DNA from: Promethearchaeota archaeon
GTDB lineage: Archaea > Asgardarchaeota > Lokiarchaeia > Sigyniarchaeales > SOKP01
Length of the DNA stretch: 64,000 nt
NCBI GenBank assembly: GCA_019058445.1
Contig: JAHPZA010000006.1
Location: 768,001 to 832,000, forward strand
Reading direction: 5' to 3'
In this document: piece by piece, positions 34,523 through 51,469 of the stretch
Layout: each line of letters starts with the position of its first letter
Position numbering within the stretch: position 1 is the stretch's first letter
Program-made: the position numbers and the translations under genes
The notes under the pieces: generated by a model
Told to the model about the DNA's origin: nothing
The model's input: only the letters and a program-made list of their open reading frames with translations
Database searches by the model: none

Positions 34523-34654
34523 TTACTCTAGGACAGCCAGGCTTAGGTTTTACTAATGTAATGCATGTTTTTTTTAGAGATCTTTAATATCTTTTTTTCT
34601 AATTTTTATTGAAGAATGTTTTACTTCAAAAACTTAAGTAAAAAATAAATAAAA

Positions 34655-36187: not shown

Positions 36188-37720
36188 TTAATCCTCTTCT
36201 TTGACGATGTATTTTGCCATGTCATCATCGTAACTATACATGTGGAACTTATTAGGGCTAAGTAAGAAATTTGGATCTACAGTTTTTTTCATATCCTTAA
36301 AGAATTGCCTAAATTCGGGGGTATAGGCATCAGCTTCAACAACTGATTGTGAAATCGACTCTCCAAGCCAATAATGCGCTGCTCCATATCGAACCTGAGA
36401 TCTTATCTTCTTATGCCAAATATTCATATTCTTTTCGCGCTGCCCATCCACATTATCACCGCCGACACCTCCTAATACCACATAATTTCCGTTTGGTAAG
36501 AAGTATAGCATAGAGGCAAATATGCCAGGAAAACTTCCAGGGGGATATTCATCTTTATGTTTTAAACTAAAATCTTTAATCTTTTTATACACCTCCCCCA
36601 TAGTTGAAATTGGAATCTTGTGACAAGTAGCCATTGAAATTCTAGAAGGCACAGGGGAAATAGATGCTTGAAAAAATTGGAATGTTGTCTTTAAGTTATA
36701 ACCCCATTCTGGAGCCGCTTCTAATTCGGGATTAAAAATTTTATACGATAAAGGTTGAGTATCGTTTTCCATAATCCTCTCAAGTTTTTCCAGATGTGTA
36801 TCGAGAATACTTTTTTCAGTTGCTTCCAATAGTATATTCATGAGCGGACCTCTTATTTTTAGCTTTTTAAATTCCCTAATGGGTGATTGAGCGGCGACCA
36901 TTTGAACTAAAATTGTAGGCAGTACAGAGAGGTCATGTAATCCTTCTGCTAACTCAAATCTTATCTTATGCGATAGTTCAAATACTTTATTGTAATCCTC
37001 TTTATTAAGGAAATACATTCGTGCGGCTTTATAGGGAGGATCGCGGTGTAACCTCAGAAAAGCCTTAGTTTTAATCCCCATGGTTCCTACATCGCCCATA
37101 AACAGGCCTGTGAAGTCAGGAGCAACACCGTACCTGCAAAAGGGTTGCGCATACTTGTTTGCTGCAGATCCAGTTCTAATTATAGTTCCCTGGGGATTAG
37201 GCAGTACAACCTCAACTCCAAGGCAAATATCCGGTACTAAACCATATTTAGTGGAACCTCCTCCAGCAGTACTGTTTGAAAGACCCCCTCCAATTGTTGC
37301 AGAAAATCCACTTCCTGGACCAATAATACCTGTAGTATATCCTGTAGGGTGCAGTGCTGATATGAGAGCACCCCATGTAACTCCACACTCCACAACGATA
37401 TAGTAATCTTTTTTATTAATCTCCAATATTTTATTCATTCTTGTAAGGTCTATAAGAATTCCTCCTTGAGTTACGGAACCACCCACTAAGTCGGCTCCTC
37501 CGCCTCTTGGAACCATTTTAATTTTATATTTGTTAGCAATCTTTACAATTTCGGAAATTTCTTCAACGGTTTCGGGTCGCACAATCATATCCGCCCATCT
37601 ATCCGGAAAAGCAGGATCAACATTCCTACTATATGCAGCTTTCATGAAATCTTTATCTGTAATAAAATCTTGTCCAACAATACCTTCGATTGCTTTATAG
37701 GCATCTTTTACTTTCGACAT
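36188..37720 (-). CDS. FAD-binding oxidoreductase (VAO/GlcD-like), paralogue 2
   Basis: Same FAD-binding motifs as 18211..19740. Confidence 0.88.
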   Translation of the reverse strand: MSKVKDAYKAIEGIVGQDFITDKDFMKAAYSRNVDPAFPDRWADMIVRPETVEEISEIVKIANKYKIKMVPRGGGADLVGGSVTQGGILIDLTRMNKILEINKKDYYIVVECGVTWGALISALHPTGYTTGIIGPGSGFSATIGGGLSNSTAGGGSTKYGLVPDICLGVEVVLPNPQGTIIRTGSAANKYAQPFCRYGVAPDFTGLFMGDVGTMGIKTKAFLRLHRDPPYKAARMYFLNKEDYNKVFELSHKIRFELAEGLHDLSVLPTILVQMVAAQSPIREFKKLKIRGPLMNILLEATEKSILDTHLEKLERIMENDTQPLSYKIFNPELEAAPEWGYNLKTTFQFFQASISPVPSRISMATCHKIPISTMGEVYKKIKDFSLKHKDEYPPGSFPGIFASMLYFLPNGNYVVLGGVGGDNVDGQREKNMNIWHKKIRSQVRYGAAHYWLGESISQSVVEADAYTPEFRQFFKDMKKTVDPNFLLSPNKFHMYSYDDDMAKYIVKEED

Positions 37721-37831
37721 TTCACCACCTTTATTTTAATTTTTTTTATTAGAGCTATTTTTTTTGGTTTATTTAATATTTTTGACTAAATTGTATTTAA
37801 AAGAGTGATTTCTTAAATTATTAAAATTTAT

Positions 37832-39505
37832 TTAATCTCGTTTGATTTCATATCCCGTCTTTTCTCTGTCATAAGTACTTTCTGTTATTCCGCGTTCTTT
37901 GAGATAGCGTTTCATAACTCGATGAACTTCACTTTTAGGGAGCTTTTCAACAAAATCAATATATCGAGGAATCATAAAATAGGCCATTTTCCCTTGGCAG
38001 AAATCTAAAAGTTCTTCTGGGGTCATTCTCTCACCCGGTTTTAATACTACCGAAACCATTACTTCATCCTCACCTAATTCAGATTTAACACCATAAGCAG
38101 CTGATTCTAAAACCTTATCGTGTAAATTTATTACTCTTTCAACACTATAGGGTGCAATATTTTCTCCACGGCGTCTAATAGATTCTTTTTTCCTATCTAC
38201 GAAATAAAACCAGCCCTCATTATCCTTATATGCTAAATCCCCCGTATGAAACCATTTTTGGCCGTCATTGCCTTCAAATATTAGACTTTTCGAAGATTCC
38301 TCGTCTTTGTAGTATTTAACGGTTCTTTGCTTGACTTCACTCTCTCTGACTAAAAAAACTAATTCTCCGACCTTTTCTGATTCTTTGAAAATTGTGCCAT
38401 CTTCATCCATTATTTCAGCAACTACTCCTGGTAATGGTTTTCCCATTGTACCGGGAGGAACTTCTTCTGCGCCACCTGTTGTGAGCATGAATCCTCCTCC
38501 GTCAGTAGCGCCATAACCTTCAGATAGTTTCACACCAAATCTTTCCTGAAATGCCACCCATAATTCTTTCGGGCATGCTGCAGAATTAATTTGCCTTACA
38601 CTATGATCCTTGTCATTTGGTCTTTCTGGTTGTTTCATTAGGATTGGAATCATAGCTCCTAATGCGTTATGTGCAGTCACTCCATATTTACGACAAATAT
38701 CCCAATGTCTGCTGGCGCTAAATCTTTTTGCTAAAATTAATGGTCTTTCTGAAAAGTAAGCTGGTAAACTGGTTAGAAATAATGCATTTGAATGGAATAA
38801 GGGTAAACATGTAAATAATATATCATCTGAGGCAGCCAGCATAGAAATCATTCCCATTAGTGTTTGGATACTTAGTCCACCAATCAATTTACCTTGCCAA
38901 AACATAACTGCTTTAGGAAGTCCCGTTGTGCCCGCAGTATACATGAGCATTACTATATCTTTAGTGCTTATCTCCAGTTCGATATCATCATTAGATGCCT
39001 TCATAACTTCTTGAAGAGATATAACGCTCTCTGGTAATTTAAACTCCTCAGGAGCTTCATTGGTATCAACAATTATACATCTAATTTCGGGTAATCTTTC
39101 CTTAACTTCCATAACAGCGTCTAAAAATGACCAATGAACAATAACAGCCGACGCATCAGAGTGATCTATTATAAACTGTAAGCCATCTCCTCTTAAGGCT
39201 ATATTTACCATCACAGAATACATTCCGGTCTTAAATGTGGCAAAAACAGTTAAAAGGAATTCAGGGGAATTAATCTCCATGAGAGCAACACCTTCACCCT
39301 TTTTCAAACCTAATTTAAGAAGTCCGTTTCCTAAACGATTTGATAATAAATGTATATCCTTATAAGTGTATTTCTCATCAATTCCTTTATCAAAGTCCCT
39401 AATATACGTCATATACACTTTATCCGGGACAGTCTCTGCTTTATGTTTAATAATATCTCTTAATAAGGTTCTTCTTGAAACTCTGAATTTTTTGGTTTTT
39501 GACAT
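37832..39505 (-). CDS. AMP-forming acyl-CoA ligase (CaiC-like)
   Basis: YTAGTTGLPKA, LPLFHSNA, RFSASRHW, EGYGATD, FHTGDL, FVDRKKESIRRRGENI. Confidence 0.92.
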   Translation of the reverse strand: MSKTKKFRVSRRTLLRDIIKHKAETVPDKVYMTYIRDFDKGIDEKYTYKDIHLLSNRLGNGLLKLGLKKGEGVALMEINSPEFLLTVFATFKTGMYSVMVNIALRGDGLQFIIDHSDASAVIVHWSFLDAVMEVKERLPEIRCIIVDTNEAPEEFKLPESVISLQEVMKASNDDIELEISTKDIVMLMYTAGTTGLPKAVMFWQGKLIGGLSIQTLMGMISMLAASDDILFTCLPLFHSNALFLTSLPAYFSERPLILAKRFSASRHWDICRKYGVTAHNALGAMIPILMKQPERPNDKDHSVRQINSAACPKELWVAFQERFGVKLSEGYGATDGGGFMLTTGGAEEVPPGTMGKPLPGVVAEIMDEDGTIFKESEKVGELVFLVRESEVKQRTVKYYKDEESSKSLIFEGNDGQKWFHTGDLAYKDNEGWFYFVDRKKESIRRRGENIAPYSVERVINLHDKVLESAAYGVKSELGEDEVMVSVVLKPGERMTPEELLDFCQGKMAYFMIPRYIDFVEKLPKSEVHRVMKRYLKERGITESTYDREKTGYEIKRD

Positions 39506-39604
39506 TTTACCTCATTTTTAATTTTTTTTTCATAATGATGTGTTTTACTTAAAAATAAATAAAATAATTATTTCCAATATTGAATATTATTAAAATTAAT
39601 CTAC

Positions 39605-41323
39605 TTATGCCCCCTTAAAATATCCTCCTTTTTCTCGGTCATAAGTATCTTTTGTTACTCCGCGTTCTTTAAGAAATCGCTTCATTATCCGATGGACTTC
39701 GCTCTTGGGAAGTTCTTCCACGAATTCGATAAATCGAGGAATTTGAAATGTAGCAAGTTTATCTTTACAATAGTCAAGTAATTCTTCAGGAGTCAAGGTT
39801 TCACTAGGTTTTAAAATCACAGCTACCATCACCTCATCTTCAGCATAATCTTCTCCCACCTGAGACGATTTTATACCGTAAGCTGCTGATTCCAAAACTT
39901 TATCATGTCTATTAATTATTTTTTCAATACTCCATGCTGCAATGTTTTCTCCACGTCTCCTAATTGAATCTTTTTTCCGATCCACGAAGAAGACCCATCC
40001 CTCTTTATCTTTTGTTGCTAAATCCCCGGTATGAAACCATAATTGCCCATCTGCTCCTTTTTGAATTAATCTTTTAGACGCAGCTTCATCTTTATAATAT
40101 TTAACCTGTCTCTGTTCTTTTTCCTCTTCTCTTACTAAAAAGACTAGTTCTCCTACTTCATCGGATCCTAAAATATTACCATCCTCATCCATAATTTCTG
40201 CAACAACATTACCCGCGGGTTTTCCCATAGTACCCACTGGAGGTTTTTCTTTTTCTCTGCCATAAGTTCCCAAGAAAAAACCCCCTCCATCCACTGCACC
40301 ATAAGCCTCATAGACTTTCACATTAAATCTCTCTTCAAATTCCTCAATTAGTTCTTTAGGGCATGCAGCTGAATTCACACGCCACACTTTATTCTCTCCA
40401 TCGTTCGGTCGTGGAGGTTGTTTTAACAAATATTGTGGCATTGAGCCCAATAGGTTAAAATTTGTCACTTTATATTTTCGAATCATATCCCAAAATCTTG
40501 AAGCAGAAAACCTCTTTGCGAGGATAACGGGCCACTCCGCCATATATCCAGGCATTGTGGTTAATTGAAGAGCATTTCCATGGAATAATGGTAAACAAGT
40601 GAACAACACATCACCTGGACGACCTACCATAAACGCGATTAAATTGATATACCCCAGCGCATCGCCCATCAAAGATTTTCCATAAAAGAAAGTCGTGGCT
40701 TTAGGGAGCCCGGTGGTTCCTGATGTATATATTAGGATGGCCATATCGTTTGGATCGATGTCTACTTCGATATCATCCTCAGGGGCATCCATTACACTTT
40801 GTAGAGATAATGTATCCTCAGGTAATTTAAAATCATTTGGGGCTTCATTTTTATCTATAATAACATATTTGATTTTTGGCAATTGATCCTTTATTTTTAA
40901 ATACGCGTCTACTAAAGTCCAATGAAGGATAAAGGCTTTAGAATCACTATGATTAATAATATATTGTAATCCATCCCCTCTTAACCCCGTATTAACTAAC
41001 ACTACATAACAGCCCATTTTAAAACTAGCAAACAATACAAAGAGATATTCAGGACTATTTATTTCAAATATGGAAATTCCATCCCCCTTTTTTAATCCCA
41101 ATTTCATTAAACCATTGGCTAATCGGTTGGATTGTATATGCATATCTTTATATGTATATTTCTCCTCAATATTATTATCAAAATCTCGAATGTAAGTTAA
41201 GAGTACTTTATCTCCTACTCTTTCTGCTTTCCGTTTTACAATATCACCAAAAGTAGTGGTTTGGGTAATTCCTTCTTTTTTCTTAACCATATTTAAATAC
41301 ATTTCAATTTGTTCTTGCGACAT
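39605..41323 (-). CDS. AMP-forming acyl-CoA ligase (CaiC-like)
   Basis: YTSGTTGLPKA, EAYGAVD, FHTGDL, FVDRKKDSIRRRGENI. Confidence 0.92.
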   Translation of the reverse strand: MSQEQIEMYLNMVKKKEGITQTTTFGDIVKRKAERVGDKVLLTYIRDFDNNIEEKYTYKDMHIQSNRLANGLMKLGLKKGDGISIFEINSPEYLFVLFASFKMGCYVVLVNTGLRGDGLQYIINHSDSKAFILHWTLVDAYLKIKDQLPKIKYVIIDKNEAPNDFKLPEDTLSLQSVMDAPEDDIEVDIDPNDMAILIYTSGTTGLPKATTFFYGKSLMGDALGYINLIAFMVGRPGDVLFTCLPLFHGNALQLTTMPGYMAEWPVILAKRFSASRFWDMIRKYKVTNFNLLGSMPQYLLKQPPRPNDGENKVWRVNSAACPKELIEEFEERFNVKVYEAYGAVDGGGFFLGTYGREKEKPPVGTMGKPAGNVVAEIMDEDGNILGSDEVGELVFLVREEEKEQRQVKYYKDEAASKRLIQKGADGQLWFHTGDLATKDKEGWVFFVDRKKDSIRRRGENIAAWSIEKIINRHDKVLESAAYGIKSSQVGEDYAEDEVMVAVILKPSETLTPEELLDYCKDKLATFQIPRFIEFVEELPKSEVHRIMKRFLKERGVTKDTYDREKGGYFKGA

Positions 41324-41395
41324 CTTTAATCAATTTGTATCTTATATTTCTGAAAGTATGTTCTATAACTTGTTTAAAATATATTAAAAAAAAGA

Positions 41396-43381
41396 TTATT
41401 TTAATTTTCTCGCAAACGTCTGAGCATCCTTCATTGCTTCTCCGATATCTCGAGGTCTTTTACAATCACCTATAAGTTGAATTTTCGGTGCTGCCCCTTC
41501 AAATTGTTTTTTTAATTTTTTGCCTTGGGTAATTCGGGAACCACAATACACTAGAGTATCAGCTTCAAGAAATTGTTCATTTTTATTTTCATCAAGGAAC
41601 TTGACCCCTCTATCTGTAACATCCAATAATTTCGCTTTAAAATATATTGATATGTTGTTATCTCTTAGATATTCAAGTATCCATAATCGTCTTCCTGTTG
41701 CAATTAACATTTCGGTTGCTACTGTGGTGTTTGATCCCATCAATGCTTTAACATTATATCCTTGCTCTGCTAAAGTTATTGCAGTTTCCGGTCCTCCTCT
41801 CCAATATGCTCCTAGCCCCCATACGACGACATTTTTACCTATTGATTTACTTTTTAATATCGCCTCATCCTGAGTTAACACATTTGATTTGCCTTCTAAA
41901 CTCTTTGGAATCGTTGCCTCAGTACCGGTCGCTAAGACTAATATGTCTGGTTTTAAATCGGAAATTTCTTGTTTTGTTAGCTCTTTATTGAGTTGTATGG
42001 GTACTTCTAATTTCTTTAATTGAGTTGCTAAAAAATTCACAATGTTCATGAATTCTTCTTTTTTATATTCCATTGCTAAAAGAGGGATTAATCCGCCCAC
42101 TTTATCGGACTTCTCAAATATCTCTACATCATGACCGCGTAGTTTGGCTACCCTTGCTGCTTCCATTCCAGCAATTCCTGCTCCTAATATTACAATTTTC
42201 TTTAAATCAGATGACGGGCTAATAGTTGTATAATTTTGACCACTATAAGCATCATAGACGCATGTACTTCCACAGCTTTGTAAACATCCCATACAATATT
42301 TAATGTCATCCAGTTGTCCGTTGAAGTATTTATTAGGTGTCTCCGCGTCGCAAATCAATTGTCGACCCATATAAATGATATCAACTTTACCTCGCTGAAT
42401 AAATTCATCGGCCATTTTTGGATCGACAATCCTACCTACACCAATAACTGGAACATTCACTATCTTTTTTATCTCTTCTGCTAAATGAATATAACCACCA
42501 TGCTCTACATATGTGGGTATTTGGATCCCTTTAGGATTACGAATCATGTTTCCTTGGCTCACATCAATACAATCTACACCAGCATTTTCTATTATTTTTG
42601 CAATTTTTTTTGATTCTTCCAGTTTCAGGCCATCGGGTAATAACTCGTCTACTGATAATCGAACAAAAAGTGGTGGTTCCTCTCCTATACTATTTCTAAT
42701 TTTTTCCATGGTCTCTAATAAAAATGTACATCTTTTTTCTGTTGAGCCTCCGTATTTATCAGTCCTCACATTAGAGTATGGCGCTAAAAAGGCAGAGTGT
42801 AAAGTTGCATGAGCGGAATGGATTTCGATATAATCAAATCCCGCTTGAATTGCTCTTTTTGCGGCTGCCGCAAATAAATCTTCCACTCTAGCTATTTCTT
42901 CAACAGACATTTCTTTACATACCGCTCCTGTTTGTTTTAAAGTATCTGGCCATGATGAAACCATTGTTTCATAAGCTGAGGTTAGATGTAACAAATCTAC
43001 GGTTGACGGACCTCTCGGTTCAATTTTAAAACCGAAAATTGAAGCAAGAACAAAACCTATTAACCCACCATCAGCTAATTGCATCCCAATTTTTGCATCA
43101 TATTTATGTACTGCATCTGTTACCCTTTTATATGCCGGAATATTTGCATTTTTTCCAATATTCGCACTAGTATTTTGCGGACCAAAAGTCTCAGGTTCTA
43201 CGGAAACTGCTTCATATGTAATTAATCCTACTCCTCCACGAGCCTTTGTTTCATGAATATTAAACGTTTTTTCTGTAGGACAACCATTAGCATCTGACGA
43301 CATTGAGAGCATGGGAGGAAAGCCTAATCTGTTTTTAACTTCCATCCCTCTTATAGTAACAGGATCACTTAATTTTGGCAT
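41396..43381 (-). CDS. NADH:flavin oxidoreductase, multi-domain OYE family (FadH/BaiCD/enoate reductase-like), atypical active site
   Basis: KARGGVGLI, GFDYIEIHSAH, NVRTDKYGGS, Cys cluster CMGCLQSCGSTC, second Rossmann domain ILGAGIAGMEAA. Confidence 0.88.
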   Translation of the reverse strand: MPKLSDPVTIRGMEVKNRLGFPPMLSMSSDANGCPTEKTFNIHETKARGGVGLITYEAVSVEPETFGPQNTSANIGKNANIPAYKRVTDAVHKYDAKIGMQLADGGLIGFVLASIFGFKIEPRGPSTVDLLHLTSAYETMVSSWPDTLKQTGAVCKEMSVEEIARVEDLFAAAAKRAIQAGFDYIEIHSAHATLHSAFLAPYSNVRTDKYGGSTEKRCTFLLETMEKIRNSIGEEPPLFVRLSVDELLPDGLKLEESKKIAKIIENAGVDCIDVSQGNMIRNPKGIQIPTYVEHGGYIHLAEEIKKIVNVPVIGVGRIVDPKMADEFIQRGKVDIIYMGRQLICDAETPNKYFNGQLDDIKYCMGCLQSCGSTCVYDAYSGQNYTTISPSSDLKKIVILGAGIAGMEAARVAKLRGHDVEIFEKSDKVGGLIPLLAMEYKKEEFMNIVNFLATQLKKLEVPIQLNKELTKQEISDLKPDILVLATGTEATIPKSLEGKSNVLTQDEAILKSKSIGKNVVVWGLGAYWRGGPETAITLAEQGYNVKALMGSNTTVATEMLIATGRRLWILEYLRDNNISIYFKAKLLDVTDRGVKFLDENKNEQFLEADTLVYCGSRITQGKKLKKQFEGAAPKIQLIGDCKRPRDIGEAMKDAQTFARKLK

Positions 43382-43445
43382 TTTTCCTTTTCACCTCTGG
43401 TTTTTATTTCTCTAATAATAGAAAAAAATAGAAAAAAAGAATTTA

Positions 43446-44672
43446 TTAGGGTAATGCTTGATCTAATAATTCCGTCAGATCAACCATTTTAAGATTTGAG
43501 TTTGAATCCTTAATTGCATCAGATAAGTTCCGATAACAGAAAGGACAGATACTAACTATTATTTCCGCACCTGTTTCCTCAGCCTCCTCAATCCGAGCGT
43601 TTGAGATGGCCAACGCTAATTCAGGAAAACCCTTTTTTACGCCTCCTCCAGCTCCACAGCATTTTGCATTTTGCTTAATAGTTTTCATTTCTACAATATC
43701 TGCCATCTTACTTAGAAGTTCTCTTGGCTCCTCATATAGGGGATTAACTCCCTCTTTCATTCCTGAATTTCTTCCCGTATGGCAAGGATCGTGGTATGTC
43801 GCTTTAAGTCCTAAGTGTTTTAGTTGTATGTTTTTCTCATTTATTATATCTCGGACTAATTCAACTGTATGAAGTACTTCTATACCTAAATCTTCAAGAT
43901 AATCAGTATAGTCAGTTTTAAGGGTTCTATAACAGCCAGCACAACTTGTTAGGATCTTCTTAACACCGCTCTTTTTGAATAATTCATAATTTTTTGTCGC
44001 AACTGCATTAAAACCTGTAATATCTCCAGTTCTCTTCCCAACACTTCCACAACATACTTCTTTGTCTCCAAATACAGAAAAATCAACCCCTAATTTTTTA
44101 AGGACTTTAGCGGTATTTATGGCTACAGTCTGAATCTCCGGAGTTAACGCAGCAGTACACCCTACAAAATAAAGATACTCTGCTGTCTCAGAACTCGCAT
44201 CTTTCACCTTAAAATCGAGTTTATCTATCCATGTCCCTTTTTCTTTATTATCTCGCTGGTAAGGATTTAATAATTCAACCATTGCTTTATTCATTGGTAC
44301 ATGCGCTTCCAAACCACATCCCGCATCTACTAATTCAGCCCTCAAAGCTTCATAAATAGCGGCGTTATCCATATCATAGGCGCAAGTTTGAGCACATGCA
44401 TTACATGTTGGACATTGATAAATCACTTCAGCCATGTCCTTACTCAGTTCTAACTTTCCCTGCCAAAGAGAACGAATAATTTGCATTTTTCCTCTTCCGA
44501 AGAAAGGTTCAAAACCAGGAGTATTTTCTCTTGCTACACATACTCCCCACTTCGGAGGATCATCTGTGTAATCTGTGGCTTCTCTACAATCTCCGCAACC
44601 GATACATTGCAGGATTATGTCTCCCATTTTGGCAAAATGCTTAAATTTTTCTTTTGGTTCAAATTCGGTTAT
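43446..44672 (-). CDS. Fe-S oxidoreductase with ferredoxin and CCG domains (GlcF/HdrD-like)
   Basis: CIGCGDC, CPTCNACAQTC, YFVGC, VCCG, YHDPCH, KCCGAGGG, CPFC. Start uncertain: ATA at 44672 behind SD AGGTGAT, or ATG at 44627. Confidence 0.88.
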   Translation of the reverse strand: MTEFEPKEKFKHFAKMGDIILQCIGCGDCREATDYTDDPPKWGVCVARENTPGFEPFFGRGKMQIIRSLWQGKLELSKDMAEVIYQCPTCNACAQTCAYDMDNAAIYEALRAELVDAGCGLEAHVPMNKAMVELLNPYQRDNKEKGTWIDKLDFKVKDASSETAEYLYFVGCTAALTPEIQTVAINTAKVLKKLGVDFSVFGDKEVCCGSVGKRTGDITGFNAVATKNYELFKKSGVKKILTSCAGCYRTLKTDYTDYLEDLGIEVLHTVELVRDIINEKNIQLKHLGLKATYHDPCHTGRNSGMKEGVNPLYEEPRELLSKMADIVEMKTIKQNAKCCGAGGGVKKGFPELALAISNARIEEAEETGAEIIVSICPFCYRNLSDAIKDSNSNLKMVDLTELLDQALP

Positions 44673-44754
44673 TTTTTATCACCTATATTTCTTCTTCGTT
44701 ATTATAATTTAAAATATCCTCTTCATTATTTTAATTTTTAAAAAAAACTAATTC

Positions 44755-46290
44755 TTATTCCTCGTCTTTTACTAAATGTTTTGTATAATCATAATCATAG
44801 CTATACAAATGAAATTTATTGGGACTAAGCAAGAAATCAGGATCTACAGTTTTTTTAATATCCTTAAAGAACTGCACAAATTCAGGAGTATAGGCATCAG
44901 CTTCTAAAATTGATTGTGAAATTGCTTCTCCCAACCAATAATGAATCCCTCCATATCTTACTTGCGCCCTTAATTTTTTATGCCATAATTTCATTGAAAT
45001 ATCCCGTACATCATCTACATTATCCGCGTTAAAGCCCCCTACAAGTACACAATTTCCATTAGGTAAAAAATATATAATCGTAGACCAAAATGACATAGCT
45101 CCAGGTGGAAATTCATCGCGGTGTTTGCTATCAAATTCTTGCGCTTTTTTCGATATTGTTGGCAACTTAGAGATTGGAATTTTATGACACGTTGTACAGC
45201 TTACTTTTGGAGGGGCGACAGAGATATACTTTTGAAAGTAATTAAACGTTTGCTTTAAATCCCAGCTCCATTCTTTTTTAGTTTCCATGCTGGGATCGAC
45301 TTCACTCCATTCAAAAGGTCGTGCAAGTTCCTCCTTTAACATAATATCATTAACTATTTCTGTGTATACATCAAGAATTCTTAGATCAGATGCTTCTAAT
45401 AATACTTGCATGGCTGGGCCTCTTAATCTCGGGCGCTTAGCAGGTTTCACTTCAACGTTACCTGCTAATAGCTGAATTACCATAAGCGGTAATCCGGATA
45501 AATCGCGTAAACCATCGCCAACTTTATTACGTATTTTATGTGCATATTCAAATACTTTTTGATAATTATTTTTCTTAAAGATATAACTTAGTTGCCTTTT
45601 ATGGGGAGGATCTGGAAATAATCTAAGATAGGCTTTGGTTTTAATACCTAAGGTTCCTACATCTCCCATGAACAAACCGGTAAAATCCGGCGCAACACCA
45701 TATCTGCAAAAAGGAGCTGCGTATTTATTTGCCGCTGCCCCAGTTCTAATTATAGTACCTTGCGGATTAGGGAGGACGACCTCAACGCCTAAACATATAT
45801 CAGGCACTAGTCCATATTTAGTAGAGCCCCCGCCTGCGGTACTATTGGATAAACCTCCTCCGATCGTGGCAGCATATCCACTCCCTGGACCGATAACACC
45901 AGTAGTGTATCCGCTTGGATGTAATTCTGAAAGTAATTTTCCCCATGTTACTCCACATTCCACAACACAATAATAGTCATCATAGTTAATTTCTATAATT
46001 TTATCCATTCTCGTAAGGTCTAATAAAATTCCTCCTTCTGTCACTGAACCACCAACTAAATCCGCACCGCCCCCTCGGGGCACCATGTGGATTTTATACT
46101 TATTTGCAAGCTTCACAATTTCAGACACCTCTTCCGGGGTTTCAGGACGGACAATTATATCTGCCCATCGGTCTGGAAATGAGGGATCAACGTTTCGAGA
46201 ATAGGCGGCTTTCATGAAATCCTTATCAGTAATATAGTCCGCTCCTACTACTTTTTCAATTTCATGATATATATCTTTTATTTTTGACAG
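44755..46290 (-). CDS. FAD-binding oxidoreductase (VAO/GlcD-like), paralogue 3
   Basis: Same motifs as the paralogues; directly upstream of the CCG Fe-S gene. Proposed start CTG at 46290 (ORF track uses GTG at 46299). Confidence 0.88.
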   Translation of the reverse strand: MSKIKDIYHEIEKVVGADYITDKDFMKAAYSRNVDPSFPDRWADIIVRPETPEEVSEIVKLANKYKIHMVPRGGGADLVGGSVTEGGILLDLTRMDKIIEINYDDYYCVVECGVTWGKLLSELHPSGYTTGVIGPGSGYAATIGGGLSNSTAGGGSTKYGLVPDICLGVEVVLPNPQGTIIRTGAAANKYAAPFCRYGVAPDFTGLFMGDVGTLGIKTKAYLRLFPDPPHKRQLSYIFKKNNYQKVFEYAHKIRNKVGDGLRDLSGLPLMVIQLLAGNVEVKPAKRPRLRGPAMQVLLEASDLRILDVYTEIVNDIMLKEELARPFEWSEVDPSMETKKEWSWDLKQTFNYFQKYISVAPPKVSCTTCHKIPISKLPTISKKAQEFDSKHRDEFPPGAMSFWSTIIYFLPNGNCVLVGGFNADNVDDVRDISMKLWHKKLRAQVRYGGIHYWLGEAISQSILEADAYTPEFVQFFKDIKKTVDPDFLLSPNKFHLYSYDYDYTKHLVKDEE

Positions 46291-46359
46291 TCTATTCACC
46301 TTTTTTTTAATTTTGCTCTTATATTATTTAAATTTTATTGAGTATAATCTTAAATTTTA

Positions 46360-48204
46360 TTATTCAAATACCTCTAATTTATTACTTCCTTTTTTTAATT
46401 TAATTAAATTTTTTATCTGAGCATCCCACGTATTATTTTTTACTTTATCCCATTCCTGTTTTAACCTAAATTTTTGAATCATGCAATTATTCGATCGAGG
46501 TAATTCTGTTTTAAATTCAATATATCTGGGAACTATATGAGATGCCATATTTCGGATTAAATAATTATATAAATCCTCATAAGAGAGTTTGCTTCCTTTC
46601 TTTAATACAACACAAAGTTTGATTTCTTCATCAAATCTTTCTTCACTTGGTACTCCGATAACTGCGGATTCGACTATATCTGGATAAGCATTTACAATAT
46701 TCTCAATCCGATTTGCAAATACAATTTCTCCATGTTTATTGATAAGATTATTTTTATTTCCAACAAAATAAACAAAGCCTTCAGTATCTCTGTAGGCATA
46801 ATCGCCCGTATGAATCCACCTATTTCTCCCCTCTTTCGTTAAAGTTTCTACCGATAATTTATAATAATCCCAAGAAATTGGCAATCTACATCTTGATATT
46901 ATTTCTCCTACATTATTTGGTCCGGGTGGTAATGTATTCCCATGTGGGTCGACAATTTTTAGCTCATATCCACTTAATGATTTTCCTATTGAACCAAGCT
47001 TTCCCCCTTTAGATCCTAATTTATTAATAGTTATTCCAATAGCCTCTACAAGTGTCCATAATTCATAGATTGGAATGTTAAATCTCCCCTCGAATTTCTC
47101 CCATATATCTTTAGTTGCTCCGGAACCAAAAGCCCATTTGATTGAATGAGTTCTATAATCATCTCTAGGTGGTTGGTTTAATAAATCAGAAAGATACATT
47201 CCGAAATATAACAAACCAGTGGGATGATATTTTGCAATATCATCCCAGAAGGTTGAAGGTTTAAATTTCTCAGTAATTAAGACTGATGCATTATAAAAGA
47301 TTGCGGGTAAAATACCCCAATACTGTGCAGAACCTAGATATAAAGGGAAGGGGCAATAAATTAAATGAGCTTGATTAAGTCCTGCTATATCTACCAATTC
47401 TTTTCCAATATTAATCCCCGTAAGAACGAAATTGTTTCTATATGTTACTCCTTTCGGTTTTCCAGTATTTCCAGAGGTGTAGTTTATTTGCATAGTATGC
47501 CAGTGTTTCACAATCACTTTTGGATTTTTCTCATTCGAAGTATAGATATCTTTATAATCAACAAAATTTTCATTAAACTCAAACCCTTCAGGAGCATTTC
47601 TAATGATAATAGCTTTAACTTCCGGTAAATTTCCGCTGATTTCTCTAAATTTTACATAATATTCGTAGTCCAATATTAAAATTTCAGTATCACTATTTGA
47701 CAAGATATATTCCAACATCTCACCCCTGTAAGATGTGTTCACTCCAACGAAGACACTGCCAGTTTTAATGATTCCGAACCAGCAAAATATATAATCGGGG
47801 CAATTTGGAAGCATAACAGAAATATTTGGCCGCCTTAATTTTTTCTTTTTAATTATATTCTGAAGACCATTTGCGATTTTATTTGAATTTATATGAATAT
47901 CTTGATATGAATAAATCTCGTCTTTAAAAAAGAGAAATGGTTTATTTTTATTTTCAGCCGCCTTGCTCTGGAGAAGCTTCGGAATAGTAGCGTTTTCTAC
48001 TCCATATCGGTCAATAACATCGTATAATTCATCACGTCTACTTATTACTAATGTATCATCGATAATTTCAATATTAACATCTTCTTTATTTGAAAACGGA
48101 AAAGAACTATCTTTAGCTATTTTGCTTGGAATATAAACCCAGATGCTTTCATAGCCGCCGCCCCCAGATTTTTTCCTAGTAATTTTTCCCTTTGCTCTTC
48201 TCAT
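46360..48204 (-). CDS. Fusion: N-terminal AbrB/SpoVT/MazE-like swapped-hairpin domain + CaiC-like AMP-binding domain with degenerate motifs
   Basis: N-terminus GKITRKKSGGGGYESIWVYIPSKIAKDSSFPFSNKEDVNIEIIDDTLVISR; ligase core YTSGNTGKPKG and HTGDY. Confidence 0.75.
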   Translation of the reverse strand: MRRAKGKITRKKSGGGGYESIWVYIPSKIAKDSSFPFSNKEDVNIEIIDDTLVISRRDELYDVIDRYGVENATIPKLLQSKAAENKNKPFLFFKDEIYSYQDIHINSNKIANGLQNIIKKKKLRRPNISVMLPNCPDYIFCWFGIIKTGSVFVGVNTSYRGEMLEYILSNSDTEILILDYEYYVKFREISGNLPEVKAIIIRNAPEGFEFNENFVDYKDIYTSNEKNPKVIVKHWHTMQINYTSGNTGKPKGVTYRNNFVLTGINIGKELVDIAGLNQAHLIYCPFPLYLGSAQYWGILPAIFYNASVLITEKFKPSTFWDDIAKYHPTGLLYFGMYLSDLLNQPPRDDYRTHSIKWAFGSGATKDIWEKFEGRFNIPIYELWTLVEAIGITINKLGSKGGKLGSIGKSLSGYELKIVDPHGNTLPPGPNNVGEIISRCRLPISWDYYKLSVETLTKEGRNRWIHTGDYAYRDTEGFVYFVGNKNNLINKHGEIVFANRIENIVNAYPDIVESAVIGVPSEERFDEEIKLCVVLKKGSKLSYEDLYNYLIRNMASHIVPRYIEFKTELPRSNNCMIQKFRLKQEWDKVKNNTWDAQIKNLIKLKKGSNKLEVFE

Positions 48205-48222
48205 TTTCTATCGAAACTCCAT

Positions 48223-48309
48223 TTTACGACCGTAAATTTGGGTAGTAAAATCAAAACATTTTTGTTAGTGCTTTTGTGTTTTTTTTCATTTATAAAGCTT
48301 TTTGTGTTT
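48223..48309 (-). promoter_or_regulatory. Putative promoter/operator region of the AbrB-ligase gene
   Basis: TTTATAAA box at 48289-48296 with a purine-rich BRE-like side on the minus strand. Flanked by direct repeats GCTTTT(T)GTGTTT (48270, 48297). Palindrome TTTACG-AC-CGTAAA at 48223-48236. Confidence 0.5.
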
Positions 48310-48447
48310 GATGAGGTAAAAATATTTGAATGGTGTTATAAATAGCAAATTGTCGAGATTAAGGGGAGGAATATTATTTTTTGTTATTCACATAAACCAT
48401 TTAAATAATTTAGTAAATTAAAAAGAATTATATTTTGGAGATGTAAA

Positions 48448-49792: not shown

Positions 49793-51469
49793 TTAATCTC
49801 TTTTCACAACGTAGCCTGCTTTCTCCCTGTCAAATGTTGTTTCTGTCACACCGCGTTCTTTAAGAATTTGTTTCAATGTTCTATGAACCTCGCTCTTAGG
49901 GAGTTCATCAACAAAATCAATATACTTTGGTATCATAAAGTAGGCCATTTTACCTTGACAATAATCAAGCAGTTTTTCTGGTGTCAAGTTTTCACCAGGT
50001 TTTAATGCCACTGAAACCATTACTTCATCTTCAGCGTATTCGGAGGACTTAACGGCAAAAGCGGCTGATTCTAAAACTTTTTCATGCTGATTAATGACCC
50101 GTTCAATGCTCCAAGGTGATATATTCTCACCCCTCCTTCTAATAGCATCCTTTTTCCGATCAATAAAATAGAACCAACCTTCTTTATCTTTTGAGGCTAA
50201 ATCGTCAGTATGAAACCATAGTTGTCCGTCTTTTCCTTCTCGGATCTTTTTATTAGTGGATTCTTTGTCCTTATAGTAAGTAACTTTTCTCTGATCAAGT
50301 TCTTTTTTATCAACTAGAAACACTAATTCTCCAACCTCATCCGGTTCTAAAAGATTACCCGCCTCATCCATAATATCCGCAAAGGTACCGGGAAGAGGTT
50401 TTCCCATAGTTCCGGCGGGAACAGGTCCTTTCTCAAAGAAAGGTCCAAGTAAATATCCTCCTCCATCAACTGCACCGTAAAATTCTTTAACCGACACATT
50501 ATACCTTTTTTCAAACGGTTCTATCATCTCTTTGGGGCAAGCAGCAGAAATGACTATGCGAACATTATTATCTCCATCATTGGGACATTCAGGCTGCTTT
50601 AATAGAAATTGTGGCATTGCTCCAAGGGTATTAAATAATGTAATGTTAAATTTTCTACAAATATCCCAATGACGACTTGCGCTGAATCTCTTTGAAAGTA
50701 CCACACGGTATTCCGATACAAACCCCGGAAGGGTTGTTATTTGAAGTGCATTCCCGTGAAATAAGGGCAAACAAGTAAAATACACGTCTTTTTTAGTGAC
50801 TCCTACAACCATAGGGAGAGCGGTAAAGATTTGAAGAGCTTGTCCGGCTATAAATTTCCGATAGAAAAATGTGGTTGCTTTAGGAGGTCCTGTTGTACCT
50901 GATGTATACATAAGCATCGCCTTTTCTTCAAAATCAATCTCCTCTTCAATATCGTTATCCGGTGCTTGTAGTAATTCCTTGAATGGTTTCATTCCCTCAG
51001 GAATCTTGAAATCTCCAGGTGCCTCATTATCATCAACTATGACATGCCTGATTTTCGGCAATTGATCTTTGATGCTCAGATAGCTTTCTAACATACTCCA
51101 GTGTAGTATTAAGACCTCACTGTCACTGTGATCAATAATATATTGTAAAGTTGCACCTTTAAGGGCTGTATTTATTAGTACAACATATGCTCCAAGTTTG
51201 AATGTTGCAAACACGGTGTATAAAAATTCAGGACAATTAATTTCCATTAAAGAAATCCCGACACCCTTGCCCACTCCTAACTCAGCTAATCCATTTGCAA
51301 CGCGATTAGATTGTAAGTGCACATCAAGATAAGTGTAGTCTTCATCGATGCCCTTGTCAAAATCTCTTATATACGTTAAAAATACCCTATCGCCTATAGT
51401 TTCTGCTTTATTTTTCATGACATCGTTAAATGTGGTTGTAGCGGTAATTCTAAATCTTTTTGCTGGCAT
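49793..51469 (-). CDS. AMP-forming acyl-CoA ligase (CaiC-like)
   Basis: YTSGTTGPPKA, EFYGAVD, FHTDDL (variant), FIDRKKDAIRRRGENI. Confidence 0.9.
   Translation of the reverse strand: MPAKRFRITATTTFNDVMKNKAETIGDRVFLTYIRDFDKGIDEDYTYLDVHLQSNRVANGLAELGVGKGVGISLMEINCPEFLYTVFATFKLGAYVVLINTALKGATLQYIIDHSDSEVLILHWSMLESYLSIKDQLPKIRHVIVDDNEAPGDFKIPEGMKPFKELLQAPDNDIEEEIDFEEKAMLMYTSGTTGPPKATTFFYRKFIAGQALQIFTALPMVVGVTKKDVYFTCLPLFHGNALQITTLPGFVSEYRVVLSKRFSASRHWDICRKFNITLFNTLGAMPQFLLKQPECPNDGDNNVRIVISAACPKEMIEPFEKRYNVSVKEFYGAVDGGGYLLGPFFEKGPVPAGTMGKPLPGTFADIMDEAGNLLEPDEVGELVFLVDKKELDQRKVTYYKDKESTNKKIREGKDGQLWFHTDDLASKDKEGWFYFIDRKKDAIRRRGENISPWSIERVINQHEKVLESAAFAVKSSEYAEDEVMVSVALKPGENLTPEKLLDYCQGKMAYFMIPKYIDFVDELPKSEVHRTLKQILKERGVTETTFDREKAGYVVKRD

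Follow-up and report, generated by a model that had tools for sequence, protein, structure and literature searches.

An AbrB-like module joined to an eroded acyl-CoA-ligase fold suggests a metabolite-sensing gene regulator of an undescribed build in an Asgard archaeon

We found that an Asgard archaeon carries a gene in which a small AbrB-like domain is joined in frame to an ANL (AMP-binding) fold lacking its canonical catalytic lysine, and that a palindrome, TTAC-N4-GTAA, occurs almost only next to this gene family and its partner operons. The gene lies at 46360-48204 (-) of the window, a 64,000-nucleotide stretch of Promethearchaeota archaeon (GCA_019058445.1, contig JAHPZA010000006.1, positions 768,001 to 832,000), and encodes a protein of 614 aa (P0001), starting at an ATG. 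Most likely, the protein is a one-component transcription regulator that binds this palindrome as its operator and uses the ligase fold as a ligand sensor. We assign this reading a probability of about 0.55; the DNA binding, the ligand and its effect on binding, and the sign of regulation are inferred rather than shown.

Pfam detects AMP-binding (PF00501) at residues 79-438 (E 1.6e-50; 172.5 bits against a gathering score of 29.9) and AMP-binding_C (PF13193) at residues 500-572 (41.2 bits against 24.5). The preliminary description had proposed an AbrB-like domain fused to a degenerate acyl-CoA ligase acting as a regulator, and our analysis confirms its sequence observations and supports its interpretation, with three corrections given below. 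The four motif differences from the neighbouring ligases are present in the alignment: YTSGNTGKPKG against YTSGTTGxPKA in the paralogues, YELWTLVEA against YEAYGAxDG, VGNKNNLINKHGEIV against VDRKKxxIRRRGENI, and LPRSNNCMIQK against LPKSEVHRxxK. The N-domain pattern (K-I-x..IPSKIAKD..FPF..EDVNIEI..TLVIS) is also present, and is absent from the three neighbouring ligases.

The fusion is a family, and not a one-off. More than 100 protein clusters carry it, at 44-86% identity, and the homologues cover 97-100% of the length. It occurs in about 50 Asgard species genomes and in 44 of 121 genomes of the window's own GTDB family, nearly always within ~600-aa frames, with a few shorter ones. In contrast, the nearest bacterial ANLs (29-36% identity) lack the N-domain.

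Next, we investigated the N-terminal domain (residues 1-57; 48034-48204 (-)). Its N-terminal half is basic (residues 1-31, net +8), and the FPF motif is invariant. The AF2 model (pLDDT 73.6) has strands 7-13 and 18-24, helix 27-30, and strands 43-48 and 51-56, which corresponds to the AbrB-like beta-beta-alpha-beta-beta topology; in the full-length model, the pLDDT of the domain is 51-68. AbrB-fold DNA binders rank first in two independent fold searches, with MazE, C56, VapB, Sso7c4, SpoVT and AbrB-N as the top matches, although all of the scores are weak (Foldseek E 0.1-5; VIA Z 3.2, with 51 of 56 residues aligned to C56). A profile of the domain finds 467 mostly stand-alone small proteins, at E 1e-13 to 1e-6. 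Of the 60 sampled, 19 hit PF04014 at E<=0.05, and one of them (P0163) exceeds the gathering score, at 25.3 bits against 24.7. On the other hand, PF04014 does not detect the domain directly (no Pfam hit at E<=10 for residues 1-70 or 1-80), sequence-profile searches of the PDB and a search of the ESM Atlas gave nothing, and hhalign against two single AbrB-type proteins of the window's own genome gave probabilities below 1%, although the register was as expected. This domain is the most constrained part of the protein, with a dN/dS of 0.034 and a column conservation of 0.68. It is followed by a short linker (residues 58-72; 47989-48033 (-)), which contains a helix at residues 59-67 in both AF2 models and is the least conserved segment (column conservation 0.55).

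The ligase part is half-eroded, rather than decaying. The large domain (residues 73-480; 46765-47988 (-)) is modeled with pLDDT above 90 over most of its length, and its A3, A5 and A7 motifs are conserved: among 104 members, G245, P250, E387 and D468 are 100%, W383 is 98%, and K251 is 96%, and the A3, A5 and A7 residues are all present in P0001. Accordingly, the first correction is that A3 and A5, which the preliminary description regarded as eroded, are conserved family variants. The Asn in the A3 P-loop (residues 242-252; 47449-47481 (-)) sits at a position that varies across the family (T51 V20 I10 A9 S8 N3). In contrast, the catalytic motifs of the small C-domain (residues 481-600; 46405-46764 (-)) are eroded. 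The A8 motif, GNKNNLINKHGEIV (46720-46761 (-)), aligns to GRIKELINRGGEKI of oxalate-CoA ligase, and both its Arg position and its hinge Asp/Glu position are Asn. The family counts are R47 K39 N9 at position 483 and D57 E37 N9 at position 486, and the second correction is therefore that the loss of the A8 Arg is specific to the subclade of this protein. The A8 Gly (G492) is kept in P0001, but in only 39 of 104 members. A phmmer alignment places K500 of 5ie0 (S-G-K), the A10 catalytic lysine, on Met575 (codon at 46480-46482 (-)), and this position is K in 4, R in 11 and non-basic in 89 of 104 members.

Interestingly, six clusters end at the hinge, with no C-domain. A split gene was considered as the explanation for this clade, but in the one such locus examined (1.1 kb) the next gene, 10 nt after the stop, is a thiolase. 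The dN/dS values are 0.14-0.17 for the ligase part, including 0.174 for the C-domain, indicating purifying selection.

The main new evidence is the palindrome. In the window, it takes the form TTTAC-GGTC-GTAAA (48223-48236), 18 nt upstream of the ATG, and this exact form occurs once in the genome. It lies within the 243-nt intergenic gap 48205-48447, the longest inside the co-oriented cluster. The same gap contains an upstream half-site, TTTTAC (48245-48250 (-)), 13 nt from the palindrome, with an inferred role and a TTTAC core conserved at three further loci (L001, L002 and L080), and a TATA-like box, CTTTATAAAT (48288-48297 (-)), about 88 nt upstream of the ATG and conserved as CTTTATATA in three relatives. 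Among all 2304 gapped 4-mer palindromes, TTAC-N4-GTAA ranks first, lying upstream of 24 of 41 family genes against 2 of 397 other genes in the same loci. It also lies upstream of DUF2284, in the adjacent DUF2284-corrinoid protein-RACo operon, in 19 of 20 loci, and upstream of a 171-aa unknown gene in 7 of 9. In an independent set, it precedes DUF2284 in 24 of 27 loci, and it lies upstream of the ligase in 4 of 5 metagenome loci. The arms are fixed in sequence while the spacer is free, and the sites often come in pairs about 21 bp apart. An RNA hairpin was rejected, because the arms show no covariation and the stem would consist of 5 A/U-rich pairs, and a generic promoter element was rejected on the basis of the 2/397 count. 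However, the 12-nt motif is not over-represented genome-wide in this genome (91 copies against 60-102 for control spacings), and it is absent upstream of six of six stand-alone N-domain relatives in other Asgard families, although their specificity may differ.

The third correction concerns the targets. In this window, the operator lies only at the gene's own promoter, which probably also drives the six co-oriented downstream genes (36188-46299 (-); FAD oxidase, CCG Fe-S protein, OYE-type reductase, two ligases and FAD oxidase); their gaps are 60-127 nt, and their co-transcription is inferred from spacing only. Synteny with this cluster holds only in the three closest relatives. In about half of the sampled relatives (20 of 44 loci), the conserved partner is instead a corrinoid/RACo operon. 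The DUF2284 orthologue is found almost only in genomes that carry the fusion (25 of 29), and no other DNA-binding-like domain is found in the conserved module.

How might such a protein work? We propose that the N-terminal AbrB-like swapped-hairpin domain dimerises and binds TTAC-N4-GTAA operators. The ANL-derived part keeps the nucleotide and acyl binding pocket of the large domain, but has lost the canonical catalytic lysine of the small domain. Therefore, it most likely acts as a sensor, which binds ATP/AMP together with a carboxylic acid, an acyl-adenylate or an acyl-CoA, and passes the occupancy to the DNA-binding domain. In a broader reading, which is about as likely as not, the members form a whole family of archaeal transcription factors with an ANL fold as the sensor, controlling corrinoid-dependent methyl-transfer operons and acid-activation operons in Loki-type Asgard archaea. 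As the family spans near-canonical ligases through to forms without the C-domain, it would show the steps from enzyme to regulator.

A less likely alternative is a trigger enzyme, in which the protein is still an adenylate-forming ligase, perhaps slow, that also binds the operator, with the tightly held acyl-adenylate as the effector. The conservation of A3, A5, A7 and many C-domain residues would also fit residual catalysis, the C-domain is under purifying selection, eight members keep R/K483, G492 and R575, and the gene is tightly linked to metabolic operons. Moreover, the active-looking paralogues in the window and the bacterial relatives use Arg or Lys at A10, so this clade may tolerate variation at that position. 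However, the A10 position is Met here and mostly non-basic in the family, the A8 Arg and hinge residue are both Asn here, and one clade has no C-domain at all. The loss of the A10 Lys would be expected to remove most of the adenylation activity.

It is somewhat more doubtful that the protein is not a regulator, and that the AbrB-like domain is only a dimerisation or protein-docking module of an enzyme or pseudo-enzyme working with the corrinoid/RACo proteins, while a separate transcription factor binds the palindrome. The weak fold evidence, the tight metabolic module, the absence of the motif upstream of the stand-alone relatives, and an HTH gene lying near 9 loci are consistent with this possibility. 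The HTH family, however, is present in 111 of 121 genomes, including those without the module, and hence does not track the motif, although binding by the HTH protein is not excluded. Furthermore, the palindrome follows the fusion gene into three different gene contexts, and the basic N-terminal half and the extreme constraint on the domain fit a DNA-binding face. Finally, a decaying paralogue with a chance N-terminal extension is very unlikely: despite the lineage-specific substitutions in A8 and A10 and a somewhat faster evolution than its neighbours (79% identity against about 87%, window versus L001), the gene has no stops or frameshifts, and the hypothesis is contradicted by the selection and conservation data.

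Our five full-text literature searches found no description of this fusion, and no paper describing an ANL fold as the sensor of a transcription factor. Regulation in Asgard archaea is almost unexplored experimentally, and this case provides a protein, a predicted 12-14-bp operator and predicted target operons. In addition, the link to the corrinoid protein, RACo and DUF2284 genes may help to assign a substrate to that uncharacterised module.

Among the known systems, the ligase part is closest to ANL acyl-CoA ligases of the PRK06155/CaiC/FATP type. The best NCBIfam matches are NF004808 (279 bits) and NF005947 (259 bits), far below the equivalog cut-offs of 722 and 651, and the best PDB matches are FATP2, anthranilate-CoA ligase and oxalate-CoA ligase, at about 1e-39. 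The C-terminal TWD motif is shared with the bacterial relatives, whereas the A10 Lys/Arg is lost, A8 is degenerate, and an N-domain is added. The predicted topology and the best, though weak, fold matches of the N-domain point to the AbrB/MazE/VapB family (PF04014) and the archaeal members Sso7c4, C56 and C68, to which it is connected through the stand-alone relatives, but it is a distinct subfamily marked by D[ST]xFPF. In SpoVT of Bacillus subtilis (PDB 2w1t), which appears among the fold matches, an AbrB-type swapped-hairpin N-domain is followed in one chain by a ligand-type sensor domain, as is proposed here. This sensor is a GAF domain and not an ANL fold, the protein is bacterial, and no sequence similarity was detected. 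In BirA, the biotin protein ligase and repressor, the acyl-adenylate (biotinyl-AMP) probably serves as the corepressor, but the folds of both halves differ, and BirA appears to be fully catalytic, whereas the A10 Lys is largely lost in this family. BzdR of Azoarcus sp. CIB (PMC3602430) follows the same evolutionary logic, as a regulator built by joining a DNA-binding domain to an enzyme fold that lost its activity and now binds an acyl-CoA effector; the near-canonical, eroded and C-domain-less forms of the present family offer a natural series alongside the engineered BzdR series. The bacterial BzdR joins its own N-terminal DNA-binding domain to a shikimate-kinase fold, while here the parts are an AbrB-like domain and an ANL fold, in archaea.

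First, we examined the integrity of the gene. The Promethearchaeota (Loki-type Asgard archaea) window is AT-rich, with about 33% GC, and the ORF at 46360-48204 (-) is intact and encodes 614 aa. Pfam places AMP-binding at residues 79-438 and AMP-binding_C at residues 500-572, while residues 1-70 match no Pfam model, even at E<=10. The alignment with the three neighboring ligases (39605-41323, 37832-39505, and 49793-51469, all on the - strand) confirmed every motif difference listed in the preliminary description, which had claimed that the key ligase motifs are eroded in this protein, and also showed that the neighbors lack the N-terminal ~60 residues. The gene follows a 243-nt intergenic gap, which contains CTTTATAAAT at 48288-48297, and six co-oriented genes lie downstream, separated by gaps of 60-127 nt.

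In order to determine whether the fusion is a family, we performed a word-indexed search, which found more than 120 clusters of about 600 aa, at 44-86% identity and 97-100% coverage. A scan of the species-representative genomes returned about 50 Asgard loci, and all of those that are not cut off at the 5′ end by a contig end encode the N-domain. In contrast, the nearest bacterial ANLs (29-36% identity) start only at residues 51-90 of the query. In the GTDB family of the window, the N-domain profile hits 44 of 121 genomes, nearly always within ~600-aa frames. Across 301 genomes of the phylum, the fused form occurs in this family and two sister families of the same class, while two other families hold only stand-alone 59-142-aa forms. 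The genome of the window has a single copy of the domain.

Next, we investigated the N-domain. An AF2 model built from 32 sequences (pLDDT 73.6) has strands 7-13 and 18-24, helix 27-30, and strands 43-48 and 51-56, which is the beta-beta-alpha-beta-beta order of AbrB-N. The fold searches gave weak scores but a consistent ranking. The best rows from Foldseek are MazE, C56 of pSSVi, VapB, C68, AbrB-N, and SpoVT, with E values of 0.12-5. An aligner that does not depend on Foldseek, with which the model was compared with 48,161 chains, ranks C56 (Z 3.2, 51 of 56 residues, rmsd 2.8), Sso7c4, and VapB first, with SpoVT and AbrB-N lower in the list. Moreover, a profile of the domain finds 467 proteins in 1.84 billion representatives, most of which are 55-90-aa stand-alone proteins sharing a D[ST]xFPF signature and mostly not recognized by Pfam. 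Of the 60 sampled, 19 hit PF04014 at E<=0.05, and one of them (the protein P0163) scores above the gathering score. Residues 1-31 carry a net charge of +8, and the domain is the most constrained part of the protein, with a dN/dS of 0.034 against L001, the locus of a close relative. We read it as probably a divergent AbrB/MazE-superfamily domain.

How much of the ligase is retained? Among 104 full-length members, G245 and P250 of the A3 P-loop are conserved in 100% and K251 in 96%, W383 and E387 of A5 in 98% and 100%, respectively, and D468 of A7 in 100%. In contrast, the A8 Arg position (483) is R in 47, K in 39, and N in 9 members, the A8 hinge position (486) is D in 57, E in 37, and N in 9, and the A8 Gly (492) is kept in 39; both positions 483 and 486 are Asn in this protein. 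In the alignments of the last 146 residues to oxalate-CoA ligases, the S-G-K of 5ie0 (K500) falls on N-C-M, so that the A10 catalytic position is Met575. In the family, this position is K in 4 members, R in 11, and non-basic in 89. The three canonical paralogues in the window and the bacterial relatives carry Arg or Lys at that position, and the loss is therefore specific to the fused family; interestingly, the paralogues and many of the nearest bacterial relatives (loci L053-L079) have Arg instead of Lys there (PKSEVHR, PKTPTQR). Eight members keep R/K483, G492, and R575, and thus look close to canonical. On the other hand, a clade of six clusters of 482-490 aa (P0062, P0074, P0090, P0093, P0102, and P0106) keeps the AbrB-like domain and the ANL large domain, but ends directly after the hinge (GRK...) and lacks the C-domain. 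In the single such locus examined (L098:1-390), a thiolase gene starts 10 nt after the stop. The dN/dS is 0.144 for the large domain and 0.174 for the small domain, while five neighboring genes give 0.05-0.09, and a sixth pairing, which may not be orthologous, gives 0.13. Selection is therefore relaxed but clearly purifying. The pattern is a conserved binding pocket with lost small-domain chemistry, which fits a sensor better than an ordinary ligase.

We then analyzed the upstream region, and found a specific palindrome. The upstream gap is 83% identical among four close relatives and contains an invariant TTTACGGTCGTAAA, which lies at 48223-48236 in the window, 18 nt from the ATG. This exact form occurs once in the 4.6-Mb genome. 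In relatives at only 44-50% protein identity, the same type of site recurs 29-58 nt upstream of the start codon. In an unbiased count of all 256 x 9 gapped 4-mer palindromes, TTAC-N4-GTAA ranks first, with 24 of 41 non-redundant ligase upstream regions against 2 of 397 other upstream regions in the same loci. When one mismatch is allowed, the counts are 31/41 against 38/397. The site density is 4.9 per kb upstream of the ligase against 0.067 per kb elsewhere. A second exact TTAC-N4-GTAA in the window (TTACTAATGTAA, 34550-34561) lies in a non-coding stretch between two gene ends, not in a promoter position. The only other genes that carry the site are the DUF2284 gene that opens the adjacent operon, in 19/20 loci, and the gene for a 171-aa protein with no Pfam match, which lies directly downstream of the fusion gene in the OYE-type loci (L030:7224-7739, L032:11941-12456, and relatives), in 7/9 loci. 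Two independent sets agree. Of 27 further DUF2284 loci, 24 have the site about 80 nt upstream; nine of those have a second copy about 85 nt further up, and one has a third copy about 110 nt beyond that. Four of five metagenome loci have it upstream of the ligase. Upstream of DUF2284, the site lies 10-14 nt before a conserved TTTAATAAATAAA box, and a degenerate copy lies about 21 nt further upstream. The arms are fixed in sequence and the spacer is free, which points to a protein-binding site rather than an RNA stem.

The genomic context differs among the relatives. The three closest ones (loci L001-L003), as far as their contigs reach, share parts of the cluster in the window: FAD oxidases, CCG protein, OYE-type reductase, thiolase, nitroreductase, and three ligases. 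In 20 of 44 loci, the gene instead ends a co-oriented set of DUF2284, a B12-binding protein, and RACo (a conserved module found among loci L004-L054, for example L016:6318-11803, and L178-L204), preceded in about half of these 20 loci by one or two CoA-transferase genes, and in about 7 loci it follows an OYE-type reductase. DUF2284 orthologues occur in 29/121 family genomes, of which 25 carry the fusion, in the cases checked about 3.5 kb away on the same contig; the other four are explained by contig ends, incomplete genomes, or a weak hit. The genome of the window lacks that module. Its best second site, the perfect 7-4-7 palindrome TTTTTACGGTAGTAAAAA on another contig (G000:C3:364264; L174:6264-6275), lies 64 nt upstream of a corrinoid-protein plus URO-D-type methyltransferase operon, and is kept in the same-genus genome that has both genes (L216:2224). 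An HTH gene lies near 9 loci, but its family is present in 111/121 genomes regardless of the module. In about ten genomes of the family, the matches to this double-HTH protein are read through one in-frame stop (TAG, TAA, or TGA; for example, G195:C58:77153-77872 and G132:C64:80503-81186).

The AbrB-like domain is the only DNA-binding candidate that travels with the palindrome through three different gene contexts. Therefore, we favor a one-component regulator with an ANL-derived sensor, with a probability of roughly 0.55, in which the DNA binding, the ligand, and the sign of regulation are inferred. A still-catalytic trigger enzyme is possible but unlikely, and an enzyme or pseudo-enzyme whose N-domain only mediates protein contacts appears slightly more doubtful. 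A decaying gene is very improbable.

Full-text literature searches found no paper on an AbrB-ANL fusion. The architecture is new, although regulators of the proposed kind are already known. The closest analogues are SpoVT, which consists of an AbrB domain plus a GAF sensor; BzdR, which consists of a DNA-binding domain plus an inactivated shikimate-kinase fold that binds benzoyl-CoA (PMC3602430); and probably also BirA, the biotin protein ligase and repressor.
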